64,000 nucleotides of DNA, taken from Candidatus Enterousia sp. Lineage in GTDB: Bacteria > Pseudomonadota > Alphaproteobacteria > Rs-D84. Under the pieces are notes generated by a model, which was not told where the DNA came from, did not search any database, and saw nothing but the letters and a program-made list of their open reading frames with translations. Shown piece by piece: positions 2,281-57,412 of this stretch (its first letter is position 1; each line of letters opens with the position of its first letter). The stretch spans positions 1,147-65,146 of the forward strand of contig JAZSNY010000025.1 of assembly GCA_045536625.1 (NCBI GenBank), given 5' to 3'. Both the position numbers and the translations under genes were made by a program.

Positions 2281-3708
2281 ATGAATATTCAATTTTCTGA
2301 TTTAATTGAAAATGCTCCGCACGCCCCGGGCGTGTATCGAATGTATGACAGTGAAAACAACCTGTTATACGTGGGCAAAGCAAAAAACTTGTCAAACCGC
2401 CTGAAACAATACCTGGATATATCCAAATTGGAACTACATAAACAGGTTATGCGCACACTAGTATCGCGGGTTGAATGGGAAACCGTTCCAACCGAATCGG
2501 ATGCCCTGCTGCGGGAACAGGAATTAATAAAATCCGAAAAACCAAAATACAACATAATGCTAACAGATGGAAAAATGTATCCAATGTTGGCACTAACAAC
2601 CGGTGATTTTCCACGCCTGTTAAAGTTTCGCGGAAAAATTAATCAACGTCGTGACGTATACGGCCCATATCCTTCTGTATCCAGTTTGAACGAAACAATA
2701 AAAACAATACAAAAGGTCTGTCAAATTCGCACATGCACCGACACACAAATGCGCAATCGCACACGCCCATGTTTGTTACATCAAATCGGACGATGCAGTG
2801 CACCGTGTTGCACCCCAGACAAACAAAAATACGCAGATTCCGTGCGTATAGCGCGAAAAATATTAACAGGGGACAGCGCACCAATCATATCCGACCTGAC
2901 ACAACAAATGAAGACATTTGCACAAAATATGGACTATGAATCCGCCGCGGTTATACGCGACAAAATTTCCGCATTAACACACACATCAAATCGCGGAAAC
3001 GCCCAAAAACATGCGTATACACCAAATTTAAACTGGGACAAAAATGTATCAGAGTTAGAAAAGTGGTTGGGCATAAAAATAAACACAGCAGGCGTATTTG
3101 ACAATTCACATTTATTCGGCAAACAGCCCGTTGGCGCCATGATAACCTTTGGACACAACGGATTTGACAAATCTGGTTATCGCCATTTTAAATTACATGA
3201 CAAATCACGCGCCGGCAACGACATTGCAATGATGTCGGAATTTGTACAAAGGGCCACCGAACGGGGACCAAAATTAGATTTAATAATTGTTGATGGTGGC
3301 ATTGCACAATGGCGCATTGCAAAGCGCGCTGCGGGCAACATCCCCGTTTTTGGCGTAACCAAGGGCATCGTTCGCGATGGCGACGAACACTTTATATTGC
3401 CGGATGGCACCGAATACCATGACCTGCCCCGGGATTCAGAACTGTTTTTAATGTTACGAACCGTCCGCGACGAAGCGCACCGTTTTGTCATCACATACCA
3501 CCGTACATTACGCGCGAAACAAATGACCGCATCTGTTCTGGATGAAATTGATGGCATTGGTCCAACACGCAAGCGCGCCCTTTTACAGCATTTTGGCACA
3601 CCGCGCGCAATAATTGATGCAGATTTAAATGCATTAAAACATGTTCCCGGCCTTGGGGATAATATCGCAGAAAAAATATATGCCCATTTTCACTCAGAAG
3701 TGATATAA
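2281..3708 (+). CDS. uvrC: Excinuclease ABC subunit C; compact 475-aa form
   Basis: GIY-YIG N-terminus (GVYRMYD...LYVGKAKNL), Cys cluster RPCLLHQIGRCSAPCC, UvrB-interaction motif (YESAAVIRDKISAL), endonuclease domain, C-terminal helix-hairpin-helix (HhH) pair. The typical uvrC-pgsA adjacency is present. Confidence 0.85.
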   Translation: MNIQFSDLIENAPHAPGVYRMYDSENNLLYVGKAKNLSNRLKQYLDISKLELHKQVMRTLVSRVEWETVPTESDALLREQELIKSEKPKYNIMLTDGKMYPMLALTTGDFPRLLKFRGKINQRRDVYGPYPSVSSLNETIKTIQKVCQIRTCTDTQMRNRTRPCLLHQIGRCSAPCCTPDKQKYADSVRIARKILTGDSAPIISDLTQQMKTFAQNMDYESAAVIRDKISALTHTSNRGNAQKHAYTPNLNWDKNVSELEKWLGIKINTAGVFDNSHLFGKQPVGAMITFGHNGFDKSGYRHFKLHDKSRAGNDIAMMSEFVQRATERGPKLDLIIVDGGIAQWRIAKRAAGNIPVFGVTKGIVRDGDEHFILPDGTEYHDLPRDSELFLMLRTVRDEAHRFVITYHRTLRAKQMTASVLDEIDGIGPTRKRALLQHFGTPRAIIDADLNALKHVPGLGDNIAEKIYAHFHSEVI

Positions 3709-7751: not shown

Positions 7752-8249
7752 ATGGGATTTTTTGATAAATTTAAATCCAAACCAACCGAAACCACATCGA
7801 CAAAACCTGTAATTGCCGAAAATCATGTATCACAGAAAAAAAAGAATACATATCAAATTCGCTATTCTCATTTCTGTGATTTAACACTATTTGAAATGTG
7901 CAAAACAACTCCATTAGGGGTAATAACCCTGAATGGATATCCAATTAATGCACAAAATGGTTGGGCCGTATGCACACAATTCCCAAACCCATGCGCTTGC
8001 GACATGGCAAAAAAGAAAGATATTTTACGCGAAATCATGGGGCCAAAAATTTCCACACAAATCATTGAATATCTGGATAAAAAGACGGGTGAACCCGTAT
8101 GCCAAATATACCCAGAAATGCTATACGTTTTCGATGAATACGAAAATAATTATATGGAGCACTTGAACCACGCATCACGTCGCGATTTAAGTAAACAAAT
8201 CGCACTACGTGAAAAGTTAATTTCTGATTTTCTGGCACGTCAAAAATAA
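7752..8249 (+). CDS. Hypothetical protein
   Basis: 165-aa ORF with a ribosome-binding site aggaaagaaaa before its ATG. I recognise no motif. Confidence 0.4.
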   Translation: MGFFDKFKSKPTETTSTKPVIAENHVSQKKKNTYQIRYSHFCDLTLFEMCKTTPLGVITLNGYPINAQNGWAVCTQFPNPCACDMAKKKDILREIMGPKISTQIIEYLDKKTGEPVCQIYPEMLYVFDEYENNYMEHLNHASRRDLSKQIALREKLISDFLARQK

Positions 8250-8277
8250 ACAAACGCCCGACTGGGCGTTTTTTTTA
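8250..8277. terminator. Bidirectional intrinsic terminator
   Basis: Hairpin acgcccgactgggcgt followed by a T8 run, with an A-run on the other side. Confidence 0.55.
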
Positions 8278-9207
8278 TTCAATAGAATCAAAATTTTTTT
8301 TGATTATTTTGGCGCTGCGACGCAAAGCGCCACCTTCGGCCGAATCCATTTTTGGATTCAATGTCGCAACCACACCATTATTTCCAACAACACGCGGCAA
8401 AGACATTGCAACCGTCCGCGTGCCACTTCCATCAACTGTACTGACCGTTAAAATACGACGTTCATCATTTATGATGCAACGCAACAAATCGGCCACCGCC
8501 CCCGCGATACCATCCCATGTTGCACCACGTCCACGTATAATTTCATATGCCGCATTATGCACACGATGTTCAATCGTCTTGCGCGTCGTTTGCGGTAAAC
8601 TGACCTTAACCTGGCGACAAAAATCATTTAATGCAATCGATCCAATACATGCCGCGGACCAATTTATCATACTGCTGTCCCCATGTTCACCCAATACATA
8701 GGCATTAATTGATTGCGGCGACACAGACAACTGGCGCGACAAAATTGTACGCAAACGTGCCGAATCCAACATAGTCCCCGTACCAATCACACGCGCCGGT
8801 GGTAATTTGGACAATTTCTGGGCCAACATCACCATTACATCCAACGGATTGGTAACAATAATTAATTTTACGGTCTTGGCATCAACATTTGCCATAACAC
8901 GCGGAACGATATCAGAAATAACGGCCGCATTTGCATTTAATAAATCTGTCCGCGTCTGTCCGGGTTTTTGATTTGCACCGGCGGCAATAATAACAATTTC
9001 GCACCCACGAACAGAACGATAATTATTAACCGCGGTAATTTTTACATCATACGAAAAAGCAGCGGCATGCCCCAAATCTTCTGCGGCGGCACGCGCACGC
9101 ACCCCATCACGATCGAACAAAACAATTTCATGTGCCAATCCGGTATTTTTTACAGCCGTCGCAACCGCCGACCCAACCGATCCCAAACCGATAATTGCAA
9201 TTTTCAA
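8275..9207 (-). CDS. ldh: NAD-dependent L-lactate/malate dehydrogenase family protein (LDH-like)
   Basis: Rossmann N-terminus KIAIIGLGSVGSAVA; LGEHGDS substrate motif; IVTNPLDVM. Appears to start on TTG, with ggagagagaaa as the ribosome-binding site. Confidence 0.75.
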   Translation of the reverse strand: MKIAIIGLGSVGSAVATAVKNTGLAHEIVLFDRDGVRARAAAEDLGHAAAFSYDVKITAVNNYRSVRGCEIVIIAAGANQKPGQTRTDLLNANAAVISDIVPRVMANVDAKTVKLIIVTNPLDVMVMLAQKLSKLPPARVIGTGTMLDSARLRTILSRQLSVSPQSINAYVLGEHGDSSMINWSAACIGSIALNDFCRQVKVSLPQTTRKTIEHRVHNAAYEIIRGRGATWDGIAGAVADLLRCIINDERRILTVSTVDGSGTRTVAMSLPRVVGNNGVVATLNPKMDSAEGGALRRSAKIIKKNFDSIE

Positions 9208-9249
9208 TTTCTCTCTCCATGCTGTATCATCAAAATAAATTATATCATA

Positions 9250-9278
9250 AAAAACGCCCCAATGGGGCGGATTTTTTT
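9250..9278 (-). terminator. Intrinsic terminator downstream of ybaB
   Basis: Hairpin cgccccaatggggcg with flanking A and T runs. Confidence 0.5.
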
Positions 9279-13716: not shown

Positions 13717-14313
13717 ATGAAGAAAAAAATACACAACGCTTTTAAACACGTTCGCAACGTAATTGTAAACCCAAAACGCTATTTCACAAAAATTGTGGCA
13801 GACGGCAACATGGAAGAATCAATGTTAAAGGCATTTTTATACGGTCTGTTGGGCGGATGTTTGGTATTACTTATCCGTCTGATTGGTGGTGCGACCATAA
13901 CATTGGGTTCTATCTTCACGGCGATTATCATAGTTCCCGTTTTGGCGGTAACGTTACTGTTTGTAATGGGCGGCCTGATGATGTTGGTATCTGAAATCAC
14001 GGGTGGCGAACGGGATTGGGAAATCGCGATTAAGGGCCTGGCATCTATATTCTTCATTTACCCAGCCATATTGGTCTTAAACGCATTGGCATTTAATTGT
14101 ACATCTATGTGGATAATTAGCTTATTGGTAGATATCTATATACTGTTCCTGTTTTATAACATATCCCTGTATTGCATGCGTGGCAAGCGCGGCAGCGTAA
14201 TCTTGGTAATTGGTGTATTGGCATTATTTTTATTAACGGTATATGCAACTGATTATCGTATTGGTTGGTTCATGTTAAAGAATACCGGCGCCACATTGGC
14301 ATGCCTGTTATAA
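13717..14313 (+). CDS. Hypothetical polytopic membrane protein
   Basis: 198 aa with about five predicted transmembrane segments. Confidence 0.45.
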   Translation: MKKKIHNAFKHVRNVIVNPKRYFTKIVADGNMEESMLKAFLYGLLGGCLVLLIRLIGGATITLGSIFTAIIIVPVLAVTLLFVMGGLMMLVSEITGGERDWEIAIKGLASIFFIYPAILVLNALAFNCTSMWIISLLVDIYILFLFYNISLYCMRGKRGSVILVIGVLALFLLTVYATDYRIGWFMLKNTGATLACLL

Positions 14314-14340
14314 AAAAAGCCCCACGGGGCTTTTTTTTTA
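14312..14340 (+). terminator. Intrinsic terminator
   Basis: Hairpin gccccacggggc followed by a T9 run. Confidence 0.6.
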
Positions 14341-14376
14341 TGATATAATAACCCCTGTTCAGGCAAGAGAGAATTC

Positions 14377-15114: not shown

Positions 15115-16332
15115 ATGACAATCGGCGATATATTAAAAGAATCATGGCTGTCCATCAGCGGCAATAAAATCCGTTCATTTCTAACGGTATTGGGGATTAT
15201 TATTGGTGTGATGGCGGTGGTTATAATGGTTGCGGTTGGCGAAACCGTACAAAAACAAATCACGGATCAGTTTTCGTCCCTGGGAACTAACACAATCATG
15301 ATTCGTGCGGGCGCGGCGCAAAGTGCGGGCGTACGCACGGGAAATCGTCACACATTGACCATCCAAGATGCCGAATTCATTGCCCAATTACCCGACGTAA
15401 TGGCGGTCACCCCCGTACAAAACGGCGCCGCCCAGGTTATATATGGCAACAAAAACTGGGGCACATCAATGGTGGGTGTATATCCCGATTATACAACGGT
15501 TCAAAATGTTGAAATTGAATACGGCACATTTTTTGATCAATCGGCCGTCCGCAACGCATCAACCTATGCGGTCATCGGTCCCGAAACGGCCCAGGAACTG
15601 GGGCTGCCCAAAAATCCGATTGGCGAAGTTATACGTATTCAAAACACCCCGTTTGTAATCATTGGCGTCACACGGGCCAAGGGCGATTCCGCCATGGGCA
15701 GTCAGGACGACATGGTAATAATTCCCATTACGACATTAAAAAAGCGTCTTCAGGGTTCACGCTTTCCCAATTCTGTAAACATGGTTGCATTAAAACTATT
15801 TGCCGAATCGGACAACAACCTGGCGATTGAACAAATATCGGCATTACTGCGCCAACGTCATCGCCTAAAAGAAGATGCCGACGACGACTTTCAAATTATG
15901 GATATGAAGCAAATCATGGAAACCATGACAACCGTTACGGGATACATGAAATTATTATTAATCGCGATTGCGGCGGTGTCACTTTTGGTTGGTGCCATCG
16001 GCATTATGAACATGATGTTGGTATCGGTTGCCGAACGCACACGCGAAATCGGCATACGCAAGGCCATTGGCGCCCGCGAACGCATGATAATTATACAGTT
16101 CTTGTCCGAATCGGTATTAATATCCTTTATCGGCTCTATGATAGGGTTAATAATCGGCGTTGGCCTGTCCCAGGGGGTTGGTCGCTTTATATTGGGTTAC
16201 AACGTCCCGTTCAGCATTTGGCCCGTCGTACTGTCCGTATCGGTTGCGGTAATTGTCGGGTTATCATCGGGCGTAATGCCCGCGATGAAGGCGGCAAAAT
16301 TAAACCCAATCGACAGCCTGCGCCACGAATAA
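15115..16332 (+). CDS. ABC transporter permease, FtsX/MacB family, with a periplasmic domain
   Basis: 405 aa with an N-terminal transmembrane helix, a large periplasmic domain, a C-terminal FtsX-like four-helix permease, and a conserved ERTREIGIRKAIGA motif. Confidence 0.8.
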   Translation: MTIGDILKESWLSISGNKIRSFLTVLGIIIGVMAVVIMVAVGETVQKQITDQFSSLGTNTIMIRAGAAQSAGVRTGNRHTLTIQDAEFIAQLPDVMAVTPVQNGAAQVIYGNKNWGTSMVGVYPDYTTVQNVEIEYGTFFDQSAVRNASTYAVIGPETAQELGLPKNPIGEVIRIQNTPFVIIGVTRAKGDSAMGSQDDMVIIPITTLKKRLQGSRFPNSVNMVALKLFAESDNNLAIEQISALLRQRHRLKEDADDDFQIMDMKQIMETMTTVTGYMKLLLIAIAAVSLLVGAIGIMNMMLVSVAERTREIGIRKAIGARERMIIIQFLSESVLISFIGSMIGLIIGVGLSQGVGRFILGYNVPFSIWPVVLSVSVAVIVGLSSGVMPAMKAAKLNPIDSLRHE

Positions 16333-16337
16333 CCCCT

Positions 16338-16859
16338 TTGTCATCCCCGCGCCCCCTCTTTTGTCATCCCGCGGCTGGACCGCGGGACCCAGGTTTTGCT
16401 TTTTTCAATTTTTGTTCACAAAAATTGTCATCCCCGCGCAGGCGGGGACAGGGTCTATAAAATTACCCAACCGCCTTTTGGCACGCGTTTCACACACTTT
16501 ACACCACCCCATAAAGAAATTGTCATCCCGCGGCTTGACCGCGGGACCCAGGTTTATCCTTCCCTATCTTTTACAGAAACAACAATTAATCCGCACGCGT
16601 TTCACGCGCATTACCTGGGTTCCGGGGTCGGGCCCCGGAATGACATAAGTGCTTAATTTTTTTCACAAAAATTCTGTTTGGGGTTATTGTATTAAATTTT
16701 AATTATTCCTCCCCCCGTCATCCCGCGACTTGCCCCACGCACCCCAGGTTTGTTTTTTCAAAAACATAAAAAGTTTTGTCATCCCGTGGCTTGACTTTCG
16801 CACCCAGGTTATTTTCATCTTCCCCCGTCATCCCGCGGCTTGACTTTCGCACCCAGGTC
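16338..16859. repeat. Cluster A of short GC-rich palindromic repeat units; 7-8 copies, one of them inverted
   Basis: Copies of TGTCATCCCGCGGCTTGACCGCGGGACCCAGGTT and close variants at 16362-16395, 16521-16555, 16717-16750, 16777-16810 and 16827-16859. Inverted copy at 16613-16646. Variant unit with a TATAAAAT box at 16426-16469. A repeated GCACGCGTTTCAC motif at 16481 and 16593. Confidence 0.85.
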
Positions 16860-16878: not shown

Positions 16879-16910
16879 AAAAAAACACCCGCGGTTGCGG
16901 GTGCTTTTTG
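16879..16910 (-). terminator. Intrinsic terminator downstream of the 514-aa cysteine-rich gene
   Basis: Hairpin cacccgcggttgcgggtg flanked by an A7 run and a T5 run. Confidence 0.6.
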
Positions 16911-16924
16911 TCTTCCATCATCTT

Positions 16925-18469
16925 TTATTGGATACCGACGCGGAACTGGTCCCCCCAATCGGCAACAACCTGGCCACCGATGGTACATTTCAAATCTTCA
17001 AAACCATTTTCAACCTGGTTCTTCTTGACAACGTTACTGGTGATTAATCCACCGGCGGTTCCCAACACAACACCCGCCACCGAATCAGACACCAAACGCG
17101 ACGTATTAAATTTACCTTCCTCATCCTTCCACACACTTTTTTTGAACCCTTTGGCCATACCCGACAAATTACTGTGCGCATCACGGATTATACGAATTGA
17201 TACACGTAACCTATCCGCCCCGTCATCAACCTGCGGTGGAGGGGGCAAATCCGGTTGCGTACCACATTCACCCGGATTTAATGACATCAAGACAGTCCAC
17301 AATGCATTAAAATCTTCCGTGGTAACATTCGGCGACGCACACAGATCTTTAATTTGATTAATCGTGCTTACAATCGTCGGCTTGTCCTTGCATGAAATCA
17401 ACCATCCATCTAGCAATGCCAACTGTGTCGCATTACACTTAAATGCCTCGCCCGGGGTTGTCTGTTTTGCGACACATTGCCCACGTCCATTTTCAATTTT
17501 AAACTCCATCCCCTCTATAACACAGTTACATTTTTGGCCATCCCATGTTGCAACCGAATTCAGCAGATAACAGCATGCCTTGCCCTCTGCTGTATTACGT
17601 GATGCCAAACATCTTTCCAATGCCGACTCCTCCGAACCACCACCGGAAACTTTTACACATTTTTTATACTTACCTTCCCAAATTTCTCCATCAAGGCGAT
17701 AGTTTGACTGGCACTGTGTAACATAGCCTGTCTCGCTACCATCAGAATTGCAACGCTTGCCGCATTTTACACCACCCGTGATACCCAATGTTTTACAATC
17801 AACGTCCCACGTATCTCCCGCTTTATATCCACTAGTAAGGCAATTTTTCACTGTATCACCGCGCCCCGTCTTATTACATCTCTTTGTCGTACTATTCCAA
17901 ACGGGTTCAAAACCCTCCTTATCATTACACGTACAATAACCACCATTGTCCGTTTTCCACTCTGCCGGGTCACCTTGTTCCTGGGCCTCATAACAAGCAA
18001 TCATTTCATCATTAGTAATCTCACAAACTCTATATAAAATGCTATATTCTCTTGCATGTCCATCTGAACAATTTTTCAGCTTACAAACCACAACACCGTT
18101 TTCTTCCTTAAAATTCGACCCCAATAAATATTTTCCACTTCTTTTTAATGCCCCCTTAGAATAATTCGAAATATCAACCGGCAAACACTCCTCTACCGAT
18201 TCTGCAAAACTGACCCATGTATCTTCCACCCCCCACTGATCATAACACTGCACAACTTCATCCCCTCTTATAATCACCGCACCATACGGGCACTCATCAT
18301 CACCAACATCCGCATCACATACATACCCACTTGTATCGGAAATATCAAACCGCTCGTCCTGATTGGCCTTAGTATATATATCACCACTCATTAGATTACA
18401 ATTTTCCGCCCCCCATGCACCCGACATGGCGCCACAGATTAACATTGACAACATCAGAAATTTTTTCAT
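16925..18469 (-). CDS. Secreted cysteine-rich protein, hypothetical
   Basis: Signal peptide MKKFLMLSMLICGAMSGAWGA; at least 30 Cys in CxxC and CxC patterns. Ribosome-binding site ggggaaggg before the ATG. Confidence 0.55.
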   Translation of the reverse strand: MKKFLMLSMLICGAMSGAWGAENCNLMSGDIYTKANQDERFDISDTSGYVCDADVGDDECPYGAVIIRGDEVVQCYDQWGVEDTWVSFAESVEECLPVDISNYSKGALKRSGKYLLGSNFKEENGVVVCKLKNCSDGHAREYSILYRVCEITNDEMIACYEAQEQGDPAEWKTDNGGYCTCNDKEGFEPVWNSTTKRCNKTGRGDTVKNCLTSGYKAGDTWDVDCKTLGITGGVKCGKRCNSDGSETGYVTQCQSNYRLDGEIWEGKYKKCVKVSGGGSEESALERCLASRNTAEGKACCYLLNSVATWDGQKCNCVIEGMEFKIENGRGQCVAKQTTPGEAFKCNATQLALLDGWLISCKDKPTIVSTINQIKDLCASPNVTTEDFNALWTVLMSLNPGECGTQPDLPPPPQVDDGADRLRVSIRIIRDAHSNLSGMAKGFKKSVWKDEEGKFNTSRLVSDSVAGVVLGTAGGLITSNVVKKNQVENGFEDLKCTIGGQVVADWGDQFRVGIQ

Positions 18470-18529: not shown

Positions 18530-18560
18530 TCCAAACATAAAAACGCCCGATTGGGCGGTT
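18530..18560 (-). terminator. Intrinsic terminator downstream of dnaA
   Basis: Hairpin cgcccgattgggcg with a T-run on the minus strand. Confidence 0.5.
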
Positions 18561-18561
18561 T

Positions 18562-19842
18562 TTATCTGCATTCTTCAATCAACTGTTGAATCTGTGCCGC
18601 CAACACCAGGTCCGATGCACCCTGCTTTTCAATCTGCTTGATTGCATACAAAACCGTTGCATGATCACGACCACCAACAAAGTTACCAATTTCCGATAAT
18701 GACAACTGGGTCGCACCTTTTAAAACCACCATCATCATCTGACGCGCCAACACCAGGTTACGACTGCGACCCGCACCACATACCGCATCATACGACACAC
18801 CCAATTTTTCACACATCATTTTAACCATTGCAACCGGTGTTTTTGCAACCTGTAATGTATCGGCCAACAAACGTGTCGCCACCGCCATATCAACCGACGT
18901 TCCCATCAAATCTGCATATGTTTTGATTTTTGTCGCAATACCCGCAACCACATGACCATCATTTGCCATACGACCCGCCAAAGCATTTGCAACATCCGCC
19001 TTGACCCCCGCACGCATCAACATAACAGATTTTACATGTGCATTTGGTGCCACCACATCCGCAACCAGGCCCGATGCCAACAAACTTTGCGCATGACGAT
19101 CAAAGCCCGTCAAATTACCCGGCATTGCATTTGCCGTCAAAACAATATTTTTACCCGCATTGCGCAAATCAACGATTAATTGCAGGAATTCTTCGGTTGA
19201 TGCCTTTTTGCCGGACAAAGCCTGAACATCATCCAAAATAAATGTATCGCAATTACGACAATAATCCTTGAACGCGAAAACATTATGTTCCTTTAAACTG
19301 CGTGTAAATTCGGAAACAAACTGCGCACCGGACATTTTGATAACACGTGCATTTGACGCACCCGCAATGCAATCGACCAAATGTGACTTACCGCATCCCG
19401 CCGGTCCATAAATAAACAGCGGTGAAAACGCAACCGCACCCGCCGCCAATTTTTTGCATGCCGATACAACAAACAAATTTTCATCCGCCACAACAAAGGA
19501 ATCAAAAGCAACAGATGCGCTTTCAACCGCCACTGGGGCATAAACCTGGGTATTATTGTCGTTTGCAACCGGTGCCACAGATGCCTTGGCCGCACCACGC
19601 ACAACAACGGATGCCCCCAACCCAAATTCCGCCGCCACGGCCGCGATAGTACCGAAATGAACACTGTTGATAAAATCTGCGGAAAATTGATTTTGTGCAC
19701 CCAAAACCAATACACCATCAACAACATCTGCGCTCAAAGGTGCAATCCAAGAAGTATAAGATGCTGCATCAATTTTCGCGGCAATGGCCCCCTTGATTGA
19801 ATCTGGGTTTGTCATTTGTGTTTTTGCCGCCATTGTCTGCAT
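18562..19842 (-). CDS. dnaA: Chromosomal replication initiator DnaA
   Basis: AAA+ Walker A GPAGCGKSHL and a C-terminal DnaA-box-binding helix-turn-helix (RDHATVLYAIKQIEKQ). Start placed at ATG 19842 (MQTMAAK...) with a GGAGAAAAGG ribosome-binding site. An in-frame ATG at 19914 is an alternative start. Confidence 0.85.
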   Translation of the reverse strand: MQTMAAKTQMTNPDSIKGAIAAKIDAASYTSWIAPLSADVVDGVLVLGAQNQFSADFINSVHFGTIAAVAAEFGLGASVVVRGAAKASVAPVANDNNTQVYAPVAVESASVAFDSFVVADENLFVVSACKKLAAGAVAFSPLFIYGPAGCGKSHLVDCIAGASNARVIKMSGAQFVSEFTRSLKEHNVFAFKDYCRNCDTFILDDVQALSGKKASTEEFLQLIVDLRNAGKNIVLTANAMPGNLTGFDRHAQSLLASGLVADVVAPNAHVKSVMLMRAGVKADVANALAGRMANDGHVVAGIATKIKTYADLMGTSVDMAVATRLLADTLQVAKTPVAMVKMMCEKLGVSYDAVCGAGRSRNLVLARQMMMVVLKGATQLSLSEIGNFVGGRDHATVLYAIKQIEKQGASDLVLAAQIQQLIEECR

Positions 19843-20193
19843 GCCCTTTTCTCCTTTTGCTTCCCCTGTCAAAAGAGTTTTCAGGTTGTAAAAACCACCC
19901 CCGCAAAACGCCATTTTCCGATATTTCTATCATCCATGGTATTTTTCGATTTTAAACTCTCTCTCGCGTTTTTATTAAAATGTTATGGATTAATTTCATT
20001 TCTTTTGAAACAAAACCAACCCGCTTTTTTTGATTACCTTCTTCTCGTTTTGGATACGTCAAATAAGTTAAAACATTATTTCCCGTTTACAAGTAATTCT
20101 TGCCCCAAAAAAGCACTTTTATTTTTTGACAACGATTCGTTTTTTCGCCCGTTTTCCGCCCTTTGTATATACAGTGTATAGACAATATTTTTA

Positions 20194-23220: not shown

Positions 23221-23252
23221 ATAAAAAATCCCCCGATTGGGGGATTTTTATT
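23221..23252. terminator. Bidirectional terminator between rpsT and the helix-turn-helix regulator gene
   Basis: Hairpin atcccccgattgggggat with flanking A and T runs. Confidence 0.55.
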
Positions 23253-23466
23253 TGCGCCGTTTACATAAAATCATTGCCATGCCATTGGCGGTAATTTTTT
23301 CCAAAACTCTGTCCGGTATCAATAATTTTCCACATTCTATACGCAGTATTTGACGTCGTGTTAAACCAAACATGCGTGCGCAATCGTCGCTTTTTATCCC
23401 CAATTCGCGACGTGCCTTGCGGAAATATTGCCCAAAGTATTTTGTATCAACCAATATTACACTCAT
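23248..23466 (-). CDS. Small XRE-family helix-turn-helix transcriptional regulator
   Basis: 72 aa with a helix-turn-helix segment ELGIKSDDCARMFGLTRRQILRIE. Confidence 0.55.
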   Translation of the reverse strand: MSVILVDTKYFGQYFRKARRELGIKSDDCARMFGLTRRQILRIECGKLLIPDRVLEKITANGMAMILCKRRK

Positions 23467-53748: not shown

Positions 53749-53789
53749 ACCCCATCCCGCCCCGGCGGGATTTTTTCCCATCGCGTGGC

Positions 53790-53870
53790 CTGACTACTTT
53801 TTGTCATCCCAACACTTGACCGCACCCCCAGATTATAACTTACTTATTTTTTACAAAAAATTACCCCCAC
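53790..53870. repeat. Cluster B: one degenerate palindromic-repeat unit plus a flank motif
   Basis: ttgtcatcccaacacttgaccgcacccccagatt at 53801-53835, preceded by a dksA terminator hairpin (cccgccccggcggg) at 53752-53778. Confidence 0.6.
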
Positions 53871-53939
53871 AAAAAACACTTTACAGGTATTTCAAAAATA
53901 TGGTAAAATACGCATGAACATAAAAAGGAAGGGAAAATT

Positions 53940-54614
53940 ATGCTACAACATAAATTCAAGAGATTCTATTCACACATCCTGGCATCATTGTCGGCGATTG
54001 GTATTGTATCAATTGCCTCAGAACGCGAAGCGGCGGCGGGGTATGAAATTGGGGGTGGGGGCGAAACCGTCACTTTTAACTATTATGATGACATCCCTTT
54101 GACCGCCACCTATACAGAACAACTTGAATGCCAAACAAGCAGCAGCAAAAATGTTATTGACGCTTTCCCCAGTGGCTCTAACTGCGTCTTTATATGCAAA
54201 CGTGGCTATGGCGTCGCCAATATAGGCCAAGGTAGCAATATAAACGTCACGGGCTCATGTGCCTTTTATACCACAAGCTCCGACACATCTAGTTTTAAAT
54301 CTTGCATTCAAAACCAACGTTCCGTATTTTATAACGGCAGTTCCGAAGATTATGGCAGTGTCATTGCCAACCAATCCGTCCAAAACCGTATGAACGGCAT
54401 ACCACACTATTGGTATTCCGGCACAAGTGCAACCCCACAGTATGACTGTATCCCATTACCAAATACGGTCACATTTGACTGTGGCGAAGGTGAGATAAAT
54501 ACTAACTCTTACACGGGTGCAATACGCGCGTTGCATGGCGAATCATTTACATTGCCCTCCGCAAATGCATGCCACGCCCCCGAAGGTTATACGTTCAATG
54601 CATGGGAATCGTAA
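53940..54614 (+). CDS. Secreted cysteine-rich protein, hypothetical
   Basis: Signal peptide LASLSAIGIVSIASE; 12 Cys; ribosome-binding site aaaaggaaggg. Confidence 0.5.
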   Translation: MLQHKFKRFYSHILASLSAIGIVSIASEREAAAGYEIGGGGETVTFNYYDDIPLTATYTEQLECQTSSSKNVIDAFPSGSNCVFICKRGYGVANIGQGSNINVTGSCAFYTTSSDTSSFKSCIQNQRSVFYNGSSEDYGSVIANQSVQNRMNGIPHYWYSGTSATPQYDCIPLPNTVTFDCGEGEINTNSYTGAIRALHGESFTLPSANACHAPEGYTFNAWES

Positions 54615-54626
54615 TAATAATTATGC

Positions 54627-54668
54627 TGAATCAAAAAAAAGACGTCGGGAATCCGACGTCTTTTTTTT
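54627..54668 (+). terminator. Intrinsic terminator
   Basis: Hairpin agacgtcgggaatccgacgtct followed by a T10 run. Confidence 0.6.
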
Positions 54669-54685
54669 TCACACACACCCACTTT

Positions 54686-55070
54686 TTCATCCCGTGACCG
54701 GTTCGTCCCTCTTGTCATCCCGGCGCTTGACCCACGCACCCCAGGTTATATCTTCCTTTGTCATCCCGCGGCTTGACCGCGGGACCCAGGTCTTATCTTC
54801 CCCTTTGTCATTCCCGTGGCTTGACTTTCGCACCCAGGTTTGGCATTTCCATTTTTTTCAAAAACACGAAAAGTTTTGTCATCCCGGTGCTTGACCCACG
54901 CCCCCCAGGTTATATTTTATCCTTTTTGTCATCCCGCGGCTTGACCGCGGGACCCAGGTTATACATCCACTTTATCATCCCATGTTTTAACTCTCGCACC
55001 CCAGGTTTGTTTTTTTACATAAAAAGTTTTGTCATCCCCGCGACGGCGGGAACAGGGGCTATAAAATTAT
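54686..55070. repeat. Cluster C: seven or eight tandemly spaced palindromic-repeat units
   Basis: Units at 54713-54747, 54759-54790, 54806-54840, 54876-54911, 54927-54960 and 54974-55006, plus a TATAAAAT-bearing variant at 55031-55070. Spacers are 10-35 bp. Confidence 0.85.
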
Positions 55071-55156: not shown

Positions 55157-57412
55157 TCACCCGGCGGTGACGGTTGATGGCTGCGCCACACACTGCCCAT
55201 TTTCCTCTACAAATCCCGACTTACACTGGCATACACCATAACTATCACGTTCCTGATTTGTTCCACACTCTAACACACATGCATTACCCCATGCAACATA
55301 GCCATCATTGCATCTGCAACGTTCATTAACACATTGCTCACCATTACCAACATTATAGTTTTTAATACACCCAGTGGTAGAGCTAGAAGTATCAGTATAG
55401 GTGGAATTTTCCGGACACAATAACGACTGATAAAACATGGTCGATATTGCTTTAATACAATTACTCTCGCTACTACATGTGGATGTCGACGAAAACACCG
55501 CATATCCACACGTCAATGCCACATTACGACACGCGCCCGCCAATACGGCCTGAATACTTGTGACATTTGCATTGCTGGACCATGCGTTAACCTGGGTTAC
55601 CTGGCTGTTATAGCAATCGGCAACATCCACAATACAAGTGGACGCATATTCAGAAATAATCTTGCTTTGTGCGGCACGTATATTAACCAACGCGCGCTGA
55701 ATATAATTCACAACAACATCATTAAATCGTATATAGTTGCCATTATCATCATATGTATAACGCTGGCATTTATCCAAAACTGCGCGACACAGTCCTTCGT
55801 CGGTCACCTTTTGCTTGGTTCCAATTTTCTGTAATAAATACTTGGCATTACAATGCCCGACTTTTCCGCCCGCCCCACAATAACTTTCTGTAATATCTTT
55901 ACCGTACGCGGTTTGCAAGAAGTCACCATCAATCAGGGCATTATTATACCCGGACATAAAATTCTTAATTTTGGAAATATTCTGCCCCAAAACAACATTA
56001 CCATTTTCATCTATATATATTTTTGTTGGATCAACACATTTGAAATATTTTTCACCACATACCATTTCGTCGGTCATACATGTTTCCAGCGCCGCAATAC
56101 ACCCCTTGGCATCATACATATTTTTATTTTGCAACACGGCCAAACGCGCCTTTTGTAACATACGATTCGCACTGCCCACATTTGACAACAACGTTTCGTT
56201 CATCTTAATCAGTCCCTTTTCATATGCAATGCAATCCTTGTCAATTGCCAAATCGTAATTACCCGTAATCTGCGATACGGTTGACCCGGCCTCTTTACAC
56301 TGATTTAAAACCGTTTTACAGCGTTTTTTGGCGGCGTTATATAATTCCGTTCCACGCAGATTTGAAAAACTGCCCGATGTACCGGTCCCCAGAAAATCCA
56401 GATTAAATAAATCCATGCTTTCGGACGAAAAATCCAAATTCATATCCAAACCAAAGTCACTGTAATCATCACCCGAATACACGGCCGAAGTGTTCGACAC
56501 CGGATCACGAATTAATTCTTCGATTTGTTCCAACATATTACGCGTTTCCGACGTATCCGTTGTCCCCGACAGGGCCTCTTCCGCCTCGGTCTCGGTCAAT
56601 ATGGCACGAATTTCATCGGCGGACAATCCCACATAACGAATACGTTGCGCGACCTCGTTCAATTGATTATTGGCATCTTTGACGGCCTCTTCCACCTTGG
56701 TATAACGCGACAGGTTCGACGAACACGAACAACGCCCCTGATTTGCATCAATCACGGCACAGAACTGATCCATACAATCGTTATATTGTTCCTGGCATGA
56801 TTTGTTCAATGTGGCCGTCTGTTCCAAACGTTCGGTTGCCTGGGCGATGGTTTCTGCATTTATTTCCTTGGCGGCACGCATTTTCAGCGAACGAACCTGT
56901 TCATCAATATTTGACCCGGTCTGAACCCCCGTATCACCAATCGTGGCGCGTCCCCCAACCTCGGCCGTACTGGGGCGCAAAACCAAGCCTGCACGACGCA
57001 CGGTCGGATTGCTGTTTATACTGGCATCCGAAACACGTTTATTACGCCCCACGGTATTTACGGTGGCACTTAAATTACTGCGCGCCACATCCCCCGAACG
57101 GGCAACGACCGCCGAACGCGCGGCAACCGATTGGGGGGCCGGCGCATCCGTCGCACCCGAAAACACACGCGACACAGCACCACGTACCGCAACCCCCGAA
57201 TTATTATTATCTTCAATAACTTCTGCCTTTTTGGGCACCCCCGAAACAACGCGGGTCGCGGTACGTGCAACCGCCGCCCCCCGCCCCGACGTATCTTCCC
57301 CGGCCGCCCCCGTATCAATCGTTGGAATAACACGCGAAACAGCGCCATCGGCACCAAACGCACCGGGCGCAATCAAAATAACCGCCATAAAAAATCCCAG
57401 CAGTCTTTTCAT
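55157..57412 (-). CDS. Large secreted or surface protein with a coiled-coil middle and a cysteine-rich, EGF-like C-terminal half
   Basis: Signal peptide MKRLLGFFMAVILIAPGAFGA; Ala/Arg/Val/Ser-rich N-terminal low-complexity region; more than 40 Cys in the C-terminal half; ribosome-binding site gggaaagg. Confidence 0.55.
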   Translation of the reverse strand: MKRLLGFFMAVILIAPGAFGADGAVSRVIPTIDTGAAGEDTSGRGAAVARTATRVVSGVPKKAEVIEDNNNSGVAVRGAVSRVFSGATDAPAPQSVAARSAVVARSGDVARSNLSATVNTVGRNKRVSDASINSNPTVRRAGLVLRPSTAEVGGRATIGDTGVQTGSNIDEQVRSLKMRAAKEINAETIAQATERLEQTATLNKSCQEQYNDCMDQFCAVIDANQGRCSCSSNLSRYTKVEEAVKDANNQLNEVAQRIRYVGLSADEIRAILTETEAEEALSGTTDTSETRNMLEQIEELIRDPVSNTSAVYSGDDYSDFGLDMNLDFSSESMDLFNLDFLGTGTSGSFSNLRGTELYNAAKKRCKTVLNQCKEAGSTVSQITGNYDLAIDKDCIAYEKGLIKMNETLLSNVGSANRMLQKARLAVLQNKNMYDAKGCIAALETCMTDEMVCGEKYFKCVDPTKIYIDENGNVVLGQNISKIKNFMSGYNNALIDGDFLQTAYGKDITESYCGAGGKVGHCNAKYLLQKIGTKQKVTDEGLCRAVLDKCQRYTYDDNGNYIRFNDVVVNYIQRALVNIRAAQSKIISEYASTCIVDVADCYNSQVTQVNAWSSNANVTSIQAVLAGACRNVALTCGYAVFSSTSTCSSESNCIKAISTMFYQSLLCPENSTYTDTSSSTTGCIKNYNVGNGEQCVNERCRCNDGYVAWGNACVLECGTNQERDSYGVCQCKSGFVEENGQCVAQPSTVTAG

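Follow-up and report, generated by a model that had tools for sequence, protein, structure and literature searches.

Tagged palindromic repeat arrays in an uncultured alphaproteobacterium and a GIY-YIG nuclease as their candidate partner

Two intergenic clusters of short GC-rich palindromes are described here from contig JAZSNY010000025.1 of Candidatus Enterousia sp., of which a stretch of 64,000 nt, hereafter the window, was analysed; unit counts cover this 64-kb stretch and the contigs of other strains. Judged by the anatomy of their units, both clusters are shown to be arrays of CGTC/TGTC-tagged repetitive extragenic palindromes (REPs), that is, non-coding DNA belonging to a known family of which they form a new member. 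Furthermore, loci compared across phyla show a gene for a small GIY-YIG nuclease to be physically associated with such hairpins, and the explanation that we favour, and regard as fairly probable when family assignment and model are taken jointly, is that the arrays are CGTC-tagged REPs which are recognised and remodelled by way of this nuclease. The more specific proposal, that CGTC REPs at large, the second great superfamily of REPs with dRS3/NIME, RPE-4, RPE-6 and WsnRNA46 among its members, are cis-elements of a small Slx1/UPF0213-like GIY-YIG nuclease which they bracket, and that the arrays and an inverted dimer of the window are gene-less derivatives thereof, is put forward more tentatively, as a serious possibility.

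The repeat units and their family

Seventeen units are present in the window, distributed over two intergenic regions: 13 are full units of ~34 bp, two are related hairpins with a 4-nt loop and two are truncated. This number is far above chance, and the positions agree with the first-pass annotation, which had reported two clusters in these places and a degenerate copy near 53801. The motif GTCATCCC occurs 13 times against 1.6 expected, always inside 16340-16834 or 53803-55038, and the 31-mer core has four matches at ≤3 mismatches against none expected. A de novo repeat search returned a family with 11 copies, and an nhmmer profile of the units recovered 13 full units and no match in the rest of the 64 kb. 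All copies are non-coding, as had been claimed from the outset, 16 of the 17 read TGTC... on the C-rich plus strand, and most of them follow each other head-to-tail in one orientation with a period of about 46-50 bp.

The full units fall into a small number of types. Type A, with the core TGTC-A-TCCCGCGG-CTTGA-CCGCGGGA-C-CCAGG, is present in four direct copies and one inverted copy (stem TTCCGGGG/CCCCGGAA) and folds at -14.4 to -16 kcal/mol, while the two copies of type D (core TGTC-A-TCCCCGC-GCAG-GCGGGGA) fold at -10.7 to -15 kcal/mol. In types B and C, with three copies each, the place of the right arm is taken by CTTTCGCA and CCCACGCA, respectively, whilst tag, left arm, loop and tail are retained, and neither type folds; the two degenerate units are decayed B/C-like sequences that do not fold either. 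The tag is TGTC or CGTC in 12 of the 13 aligned CGTC-4-type units, one degenerate unit starting with TATC, and it is TGTC in both CGTC-1-like units. Loops are CTTGA, CTGGA or CCCGA (5 nt) and GCAG or GACG (4 nt), and the stem is followed by a CCAG(G) tail in the CGTC-4-type units, the two 4-nt-loop units ending in CAGGG. The 5-nt loop proposed at first applies to five units, but the accompanying 7-bp stem is in fact one of 8 bp.

Array 1 (16338-16859) opens with a truncated unit of TGTC tag and left arm only (16338-16358; this and all following units lie on the plus strand unless stated otherwise), 23 nt upstream of the next full unit, a CGTC-4-type palindrome at 16361-16395 (TGTC-A-TCCCGCGG-CTGGA-CCGCGGGA-C-CCAGG, -16 kcal/mol). 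A CGTC-1-like, dRS3-like unit of type D follows at 16425-16455 (repeat family D19, -15 kcal/mol) and is itself followed by a conserved CAGGGTCTATAAAATTA. Positions 16520-16646 constitute a 127-bp inverted dimer with tags pointing outward and tails inward and with inverted ends of ~33 nt: by sequence and folding its left end is a CGTC-4-type palindromic unit (16520-16554), its 58-bp spacer (16555-16612) contains a small inner hairpin at 16592-16610 followed by ATTA, and its right end is an inverted unit on the minus strand (16613-16646, -14.4 kcal/mol) with the compensatory stem TTCCGGGG/CCCCGGAA. This inverted copy, which the first reading had also listed, is real, and no target-site duplication is visible at the dimer. 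The array continues with a type C unit (16715-16750) and a type B unit (16776-16810) and closes with a type B unit carrying a CGTC tag (16825-16859), where other strains have a single B unit, a copy-number difference of 49 bp. Array 2 (54686-55059) has an outlying degenerate unit at 53801-53834, directly after the DksA terminator (nhmmer E 2e-4), and starts with a truncated, degenerate unit at 54686-54710 (weak nhmmer match). It then contains a block of ~160 bp with the order C-A-B-spacer in duplicate, block 1 (54712-54875) being opened by a type C unit (54712-54747) with a CGTC-4-type palindrome (54758-54792) and a type B unit (54805-54840) behind it, and block 2 (54876-55028) having the corresponding units at 54876-54911, 54926-54960 and 54972-55007, the last of which is a degenerate B/C-type unit. 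The final unit (55029-55059) is CGTC-1-like, belongs to repeat family D19, folds at -10.7 kcal/mol and is followed by a CTATAAAATTA tail, as the unit at 16425 is too.

This anatomy is that of the CGTC-tagged REPs, which have been defined by a CGTC, TGTC or CCTC tag, an 8-9-bp stem starting with A/T pairs, a 4-5-nt loop and a CCA tail, and which are mostly hosted by Alphaproteobacteria at sites between convergent or unidirectional genes (PMC3733652). In that classification CGTC-1 comprises Neisseria dRS3 and Rickettsia RPE-6, CGTC-4 is RPE-4, and clustered units are typical of Neisseria and Wolbachia (PMC3733652). Thirteen of our units are of the CGTC-4 type, two resemble CGTC-1 and two are truncated. 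With CGTC-4/RPE-4 the window shares the TGTC/CGTC tag, in part the 8-9-bp stem opening with A-T and then T-A, the 5-nt loop, the CCA tail, the core DNA itself, an alphaproteobacterial host, the location between convergent genes and the occurrence of inverted dimers. The likeness extends to translation, since the window unit GTCATCCCGCGGCTTGACCGCGGGACCCAG would read VIPRLDRGTQ and GTCATCCCGTGGCTTGACCACGGGA of two other strains (L008 and L009) VIPWLDHG, to be compared with the CGTC-4 insertions VIPWLDHGI, AIPRLDRGIQ and WIPWSNHGMT of R. conorii (PMC3733652, supplementary file 3). The window differs, however, in that it loses the first A-T pair (GGGAC, not GGGAT), the outermost A facing a C where it pairs with T in most metagenome copies, in that its units form head-to-tail arrays rather than dispersed dimers or in-frame insertions, and in that about half of them have had the right arm replaced by a sequence that does not pair and that is repeated in its own right.

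Comparison with other palindromic elements gives a similar mixture of likeness and difference. The architecture of dRS3 (ATTCCC-N8-GGGAAT, 20 bp, 4-nt loop) is shared by the unit ATCCCCGC-GCAG-GCGGGGA of the window, but the consensus ends and the tail of ATCCCCGC-GCAG-GCGGGGAC, and of ATTCCCGCGACGGCGGGAAC in one strain, are not identical to it. NIME arrays, which were thought to be specific to Neisseria, are dynamic across strains and flank divergent surface-protein genes (PMC1797815), and the window likewise has mosaic intergenic arrays with a unit number that varies by strain, variable secreted-protein neighbours and raised divergence of the flanks. NIME consist, however, of 50-150-bp RS elements flanked by inverted dRS3, whereas the present arrays are mostly CGTC-4 units set head-to-tail and their host is an uncultured alphaproteobacterium; from this comparison the window arrays behave like NIME, yet are not members of them. 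The REPs and BIMEs of E. coli are likewise extragenic clusters of palindromic units after genes, but BIMEs alternate in orientation and have defined linkers and GTAG-type REPs. As in MITEs, transposable elements of miniature size with inverted repeats, the dimer has inverted ends, and a related gene-bearing cassette exists in relatives though none does within the window. The initial view that these are REP- or MITE-like elements rather than a simple tandem repeat is borne out.

The first-pass annotation had further proposed a lineage-specific family, and this can no longer be upheld: the published anatomy of CGTC REPs matches, and at least 120 stretches of diverse metagenome contigs, with a GC content of 0.33-0.62, contain the 20-mer TTGTCATCCCGYGGCTTGAC, nearly all of those listed reading TTGTCATCCCGCGGCTTGACCGCGGGATCCAG, so that the repeat family is by this evidence not lineage-specific. 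A truncated copy of tag and left arm lies 16-28 nt upstream in 37% of 117 distinct metagenomic units, as it does at 16338 in the window, and a further 34% have an inverted partner with which they form a dimer of 77-115 nt. The idea of a private, local tandem duplication with no wider family could draw on the restriction of units to two loci in 64 kb and on the evident duplication of blocks, but it is refuted, with practically no probability left to it, by the identical core in the more than a hundred unrelated contigs just mentioned and in published Rickettsia elements, as well as by related tagged hairpins in cultured alpha-, beta- and gammaproteobacteria. Among viral contigs TTGTCATCCCGYGGCTTGAC had no match, a megablast search of plasmids with a 32-mer gave none, plasmid-borne relatives carrying other stems, and the letters of the repeat were not met as literal text in papers. 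A scan of a genome collection used a pattern (GTCATYCCNNNGG...) that was one base out of register with GTCATYCCNNGG... and is uninformative on distribution; its four chance matches were single copies without a hairpin in high-GC contigs.

A GIY-YIG nuclease gene bracketed by tagged hairpins

A dedicated enzyme for CGTC-tagged REPs was reported to be lacking in 2013 (PMC3733652). When all open reading frames (ORFs) in 120 unit-selected loci were clustered, the most recurrent neighbour family was a protein of 96-107 aa, with 12 genes in 10 loci, every one of which abuts a unit and some of which have their stop codon supplied by it. Pfam assigns the family to GIY-YIG, and a search that started from the protein returned matches named GIY-YIG nuclease family protein from metagenome-assembled genomes of Alphaproteobacteria or Rickettsiales; in lineages selected in this way tagged hairpins were found ≤70 bp away in all seven that were inspected. 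The typical cassette reads tag-hairpin-CCAG, gene, CTGG-hairpin-tag, and some of the genes lie within arrays of 8-13 units bearing the ACCCAG tail of the window. Four loci (L145, L177, L178 and L180) have beside the gene a gene-less miniature made up of a unit, a stretch resembling a 5' untranslated region (UTR), a 3'-UTR hairpin and an inverted unit. The spacer of the window dimer ends in a similar hairpin-ATTA-CCTGG layout and resembles the 3'-UTR hairpin of the GIY-YIG cassettes of relatives such as L145 and L177. In one lineage (P0021) the gene is found beside rpsT-plsY-dprA, in synteny with ~23.2-23.8 kb of the window, where there is a helix-turn-helix gene and no units.

The association reaches well beyond these relatives. 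A tblastn search of PLSDB found homologues in Azospirillum, Neisseria, Sinorhizobium, Rhizobium, Shinella, Sphingobium, Novosphingobium, Aeromonas, Photobacterium and Planktothrix, largely the same hosts as those listed for CGTC REPs, and eight of ten inspected genes are bracketed by inverted CGTC hairpins, which retain the tag and mostly also the tail but have stems that vary from taxon to taxon. The N. gonorrhoeae gene makes a ninth: it is embedded in a dRS3 array, and a unit follows 6 nt past its stop. This homologue (NZ_CP119140.1, L188, 1881587-1883253) appears intact among 13 dRS3 units in 1.7 kb and occurs at one place in a 2.17-Mb record that is labelled a plasmid but is chromosome-sized, and it has no entry in the incomplete gene table of PLSDB. 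On plasmid AZO_p3 of A. lipoferum 4B (L187, 254806-256493) a module of ~560 bp, composed of a CGTC-1 dimer, the GIY-YIG gene and a second CGTC-1 dimer, sits between sufB and sufC, and A. ramasamyi, A. oryzae, strain B510 and A. brasilense lack it, the flanks being 90-97% identical (L197-L199). From these alignments the cassette is shown to exist as a module with presence/absence polymorphism, and from the loci taken together the gene is shown to be physically associated with CGTC hairpins across phyla.

A few further observations concern the same cassettes. By coordinates, Shinella sp. PSBB067 also has a GIY-YIG match between sufB and sufC. In comparison with L158, L050 has an extra segment of 886 bp (430-1315) with a frameshifted secreted-protein ORF just upstream of its GIY-YIG cassette; the segment was seen in one pig-gut contig and not in six others, and its junctions share a short GGGG(T)GG repeat. 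In L032 and L083 two different GIY-YIG paralogues, ~60% identical, occur <1 kb apart, and the CGTC units between them include the long-loop variant TTGTCATCCCGCGGCTTGACCCGATGCGTCGGACCGGCGGGATCCAG.

As to the protein itself, the catalytic positions of GIY-YIG enzymes are conserved and the members share a C-terminal motif W-x-R-x-WK...LIE..NP.W.DL. The closest solved sequences are UPF0213 proteins, and the structure, predicted with confidence (pLDDT 90.6), matches UPF0213 BH0048 best and the nuclease domain of Slx1 next, both ahead of UvrC. Slx1 is a nuclease of branched DNA that has been grouped in the literature with bacterial YhbQ and YazA. No literature link of GIY-YIG or UPF0213 proteins to REPs, RAYTs, REPINs or dRS3 was found, in a search to which subscription journals were not open.

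The arrangement invites comparison with the REPIN-RAYT system, in which a hairpin with a conserved unpaired tag and inverted doublets are likewise found; in the hosts inspected, the bracketed nuclease gene is moreover present at one or two places per record beside many gene-less copies, and in overall logic the two seem parallel. It differs in that the tag is not GTAG, that there is no association with RAYT, and that a GIY-YIG nuclease is incapable of covalent strand transfer of the HUH type. The possibility of classical REPINs, which would owe their movement to a RAYT gene at some other place in the genome, is nonetheless worth considering, since the dimer at 16520-16646 has the general layout of a REPIN, with two inverted REPs and a spacer. 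It is however made highly improbable by the TGTC/CGTC tag, by the lack of any Y1 transposase in the window or among the recurrent neighbours of the 120 unit-bearing loci, and by the report that no RAYT or IS200 gene is flanked by CGTC units in any host (PMC3733652).

Hairpins, strain differences and gene neighbourhood

Seven of the 15 full-length units are true hairpins (-10.7 to -16 kcal/mol), with a perfect stem of 8 bp in five and of 5-7 bp in two, and the remaining eight fold no better than shuffled sequence (0 to -5 kcal/mol), so that the hairpin is not kept in every copy. Internal pairing of type B and C units was ruled out by folding. The compensatory variants quoted in the first place, CCCGTGG...CTTTCGCACC and CCCGGCG...CCACGCACC, have arms that do not pair; genuine compensatory stems are those of the inverted copy, of CCCGTGG/CCACGGG in other strains and of the wider family. 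The dimer, folded as single-stranded DNA, reaches -30.2 kcal/mol (z -5.1), with paired tags, paired tails and two protruding hairpins.

Covariation was assessed on 31-mers chosen by tag and tail only (YGTCA-N22-CCAG) from the window, the strain contigs and loci found through the protein, leaving out metagenome loci that had been selected by pattern. The 25 distinct sequences so obtained contain seven stems that differ from one another and are fully complementary. Seven of the eight stem pairs have changed on both sides and none of 500 shuffles reaches the observed covariation, from which we consider selection on the hairpin to be real, though not in every copy; pairing is furthermore 89% in the true register against 33-50% in slid registers. 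Selection on an RNA or DNA hairpin, as first suggested, is in this respect supported, although on other evidence than was then quoted and with no need of a role in RNA. G2, T3, C4 and A5 are invariant in the units picked by tag and tail, and conservation is strongest in those two parts of the unit, which are unpaired. The type A stems (e.g. 16527-16546) carry in both arms CCGCGG, at which the GIY-YIG restriction enzyme Cfr42I cuts; a Cfr42I-like restriction site was judged a probable coincidence, other stems of the family being without CCGCGG.

Could the units act chiefly as RNA, that is, as hairpins in a 3' UTR by which the mRNA upstream is stabilised or terminated, or as small RNAs similar to WsnRNA-46 of Wolbachia? 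Such roles have been proposed in the literature for REPs after genes, and array 1, since it begins 6 nt past the stop of a MacB-type permease gene and the sole terminator lies beyond it, would be co-transcribed with that gene. The dimer also resembles Rfam WsnRNA46 (RF02625), which scores 41.3 bits on the plus strand and 32.5 bits on the minus strand of 16503-16663, below the gathering score of 65.3; the consensus of that family consists of two TGTCAT...GGGATCCAG units, inverted with respect to each other and spaced by ~50 nt, to which the dimer aligns end to end on both strands, though with different stems. At the gathering threshold Rfam finds two tRNAs in the window and no repeat. An RNA role is, however, poorly reconciled with the eight unfolded units, with the position of array 2 between two terminators in the window and directly after the DksA terminator in other strains, with promoter and terminator matches that do not exceed shuffled expectation (the loop TTGAC gives weak 9-of-12 promoter-like matches only), with the greatest conservation falling on the unpaired tag and tail, and with the inverted symmetry in which units bracket a nuclease gene, which is a feature of DNA. 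We therefore regard it as rather unlikely and, considering the conserved tag and tail, the unfolded half of the units and the terminators around array 2, as not needed to explain the conservation; the WsnRNA46 family, its consensus being an inverted pair of units, may largely annotate a DNA repeat.

Strains were compared through contigs from other metagenomes in which the MacB-type permease or the DksA protein is the identical one and most of the region matches the window at 98-100% identity. The arrays differ between them by whole blocks, the inverted dimer occurring once or twice and the B unit singly or in pairs, and unit order differs as well, with left and right arms in new combinations. 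By these alignments near-identical strains are shown to differ through a remodelling of the arrays in which whole blocks are gained, lost and reshuffled, and this remodelling leaves many units with a swapped right arm that are unable to fold. Identity is 89% in array 1; in the 751-aa gene that adjoins array 2 it is 81-82% at the array-proximal end, compared with ~99% elsewhere. As far as these contigs reach, divergence is thereby shown to be highest within the arrays themselves and in those ends of the variable secreted-protein genes that border on them, which is also the pattern of Neisseria NIME arrays. A strain-specific segment of ~930 bp on the plus strand (53749-54680), comprising a promoter-like site, the gene for a 224-aa signal-peptide protein (53940-54614) and its own terminator, is absent from the contigs of all ten other strains, where the DksA terminator runs straight into the array. 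Its boundaries are at terminator T-runs and not within a unit, and its protein matches no Pfam family and gave no record in an exact sequence look-up.

That the arrays serve chiefly as docking sites for site-specific recombinases or integrating elements, and are kept because they promote exchange of surface-protein genes, is an explanation with precedents, dRS3 being used by Neisseria filamentous phages and REPs by IS110-family elements. The 930-bp gene cassette inside the repeat-bearing gap of array 2 and the peak of divergence at the array-proximal ends of the Cys-rich genes would both suit it, and it accords with the hypothesis advanced for NIME (PMC1797815). Nonetheless it seems distinctly unlikely as the main explanation, since no recombinase or insertion sequence is found in or beside the arrays, since the cassette does not end inside a unit, and since the multiplication of units is left unexplained; as a side effect it would be compatible with recognition of the units by a nuclease.

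Both arrays sit between convergent genes. Array 1 is flanked by the MacB-type permease gene (15115-16332, plus strand) and the gene for a 514-aa Cys-rich signal-peptide protein (16925-18469, minus strand), and is closed by a hairpin resembling an intrinsic terminator (16886-16903; hairpin scan and sequence) that could serve both of them, whereas array 2 lies between the 224-aa protein gene (plus strand) and the 751-aa Cys-rich protein gene (55157-57412, minus strand). The initial statement that all copies lie downstream of secreted cysteine-rich proteins is hence correct for one neighbour of each array, the other being the permease or the 224-aa protein (DksA in other strains). The two Cys-rich proteins, both with a signal peptide, contain 30 and 32 Cys, respectively, match no Pfam family and have lengths that vary by strain (498/510/514 aa and 734/751/753 aa); the possibility that they are paralogues which carried the array along was rejected, as BLASTP detects no homology between them (E 0.3). 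A separate repeat family at 8249-8278, 9249-9278, 14312-14341, 18538-18567 and 23224-23253 consists of intrinsic-terminator hairpins after genes (A-run, GC stem, T-run) and is unrelated to the CGTC units. Of the sixty-four 1-kb bins of the window (1-64000), 62 have a negative GC skew, and cumulative skew falls steadily with no switch at dnaA (18562-19914, minus strand), so that an origin of replication adjacent to dnaA is improbable here.

A nuclease-plus-repair model and its implications

We infer that tag, hairpin and tail together form a recognition module for a protein, for which the ~100-aa GIY-YIG nuclease of the Slx1/UPF0213 branch would be the best candidate. The 127-bp inverted dimer and the arrays of the window would then be gene-less, non-autonomous derivatives of the GIY-YIG cassette. 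The nuclease might nick extruded hairpins, or the junction that an inverted pair can form, upon which repair or recombination would copy, delete or recombine units and so give rise to half-units, chimeric arms, gene-less dimers and arrays. The recombination hot spot would be a by-product of nuclease action, and spread would proceed by nuclease plus repair rather than by covalent transposition.

Several points weigh against this proposal. The window and 16 strain contigs contain neither a transposase nor a GIY-YIG gene, apart from the GIY-YIG domain of UvrC, and since no cassette is present there the partner gene is a putative one in this genome; the UvrC homologue (2281-3708, plus strand, 475 aa, with GIY-YIG, UVR, RNase H-like and HhH domains) has the sole GIY-YIG domain in the window, in which no RAYT, Y1 or other transposase was found. 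GIY-YIG enzymes form no covalent DNA intermediate, and reaching new sites needs an additional repair step. The gene could instead be a selfish one that homes into pre-existing REP dimers rather than being their partner. Recombination or slippage between repeats alone can produce every strain difference seen, and no clean insertion of a single new unit was found among the strains. To this should be added the half of the full-length units that do not fold, as well as the fact that the unit copy count rests on a 64-kb window and not on a whole genome.

The findings extend a known repeat family to an uncultured and apparently gut-associated alphaproteobacterium, a relative of which is represented by contigs from pig-gut metagenomes, and they place NIME-like arrays outside Neisseria, where they adjoin fast-diverging secreted proteins. 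What is new here is the association with a GIY-YIG gene, which offers a testable answer to the stated question of the enzyme behind CGTC REPs. If the proposed partnership is true, it would account for how dRS3/NIME arrays and the palindromic elements of Rickettsia and Wolbachia arose, and it would constitute a second, HUH-independent partnership between REPs and a nuclease, with propagation by nuclease plus repair as a route alongside that of the RAYTs.

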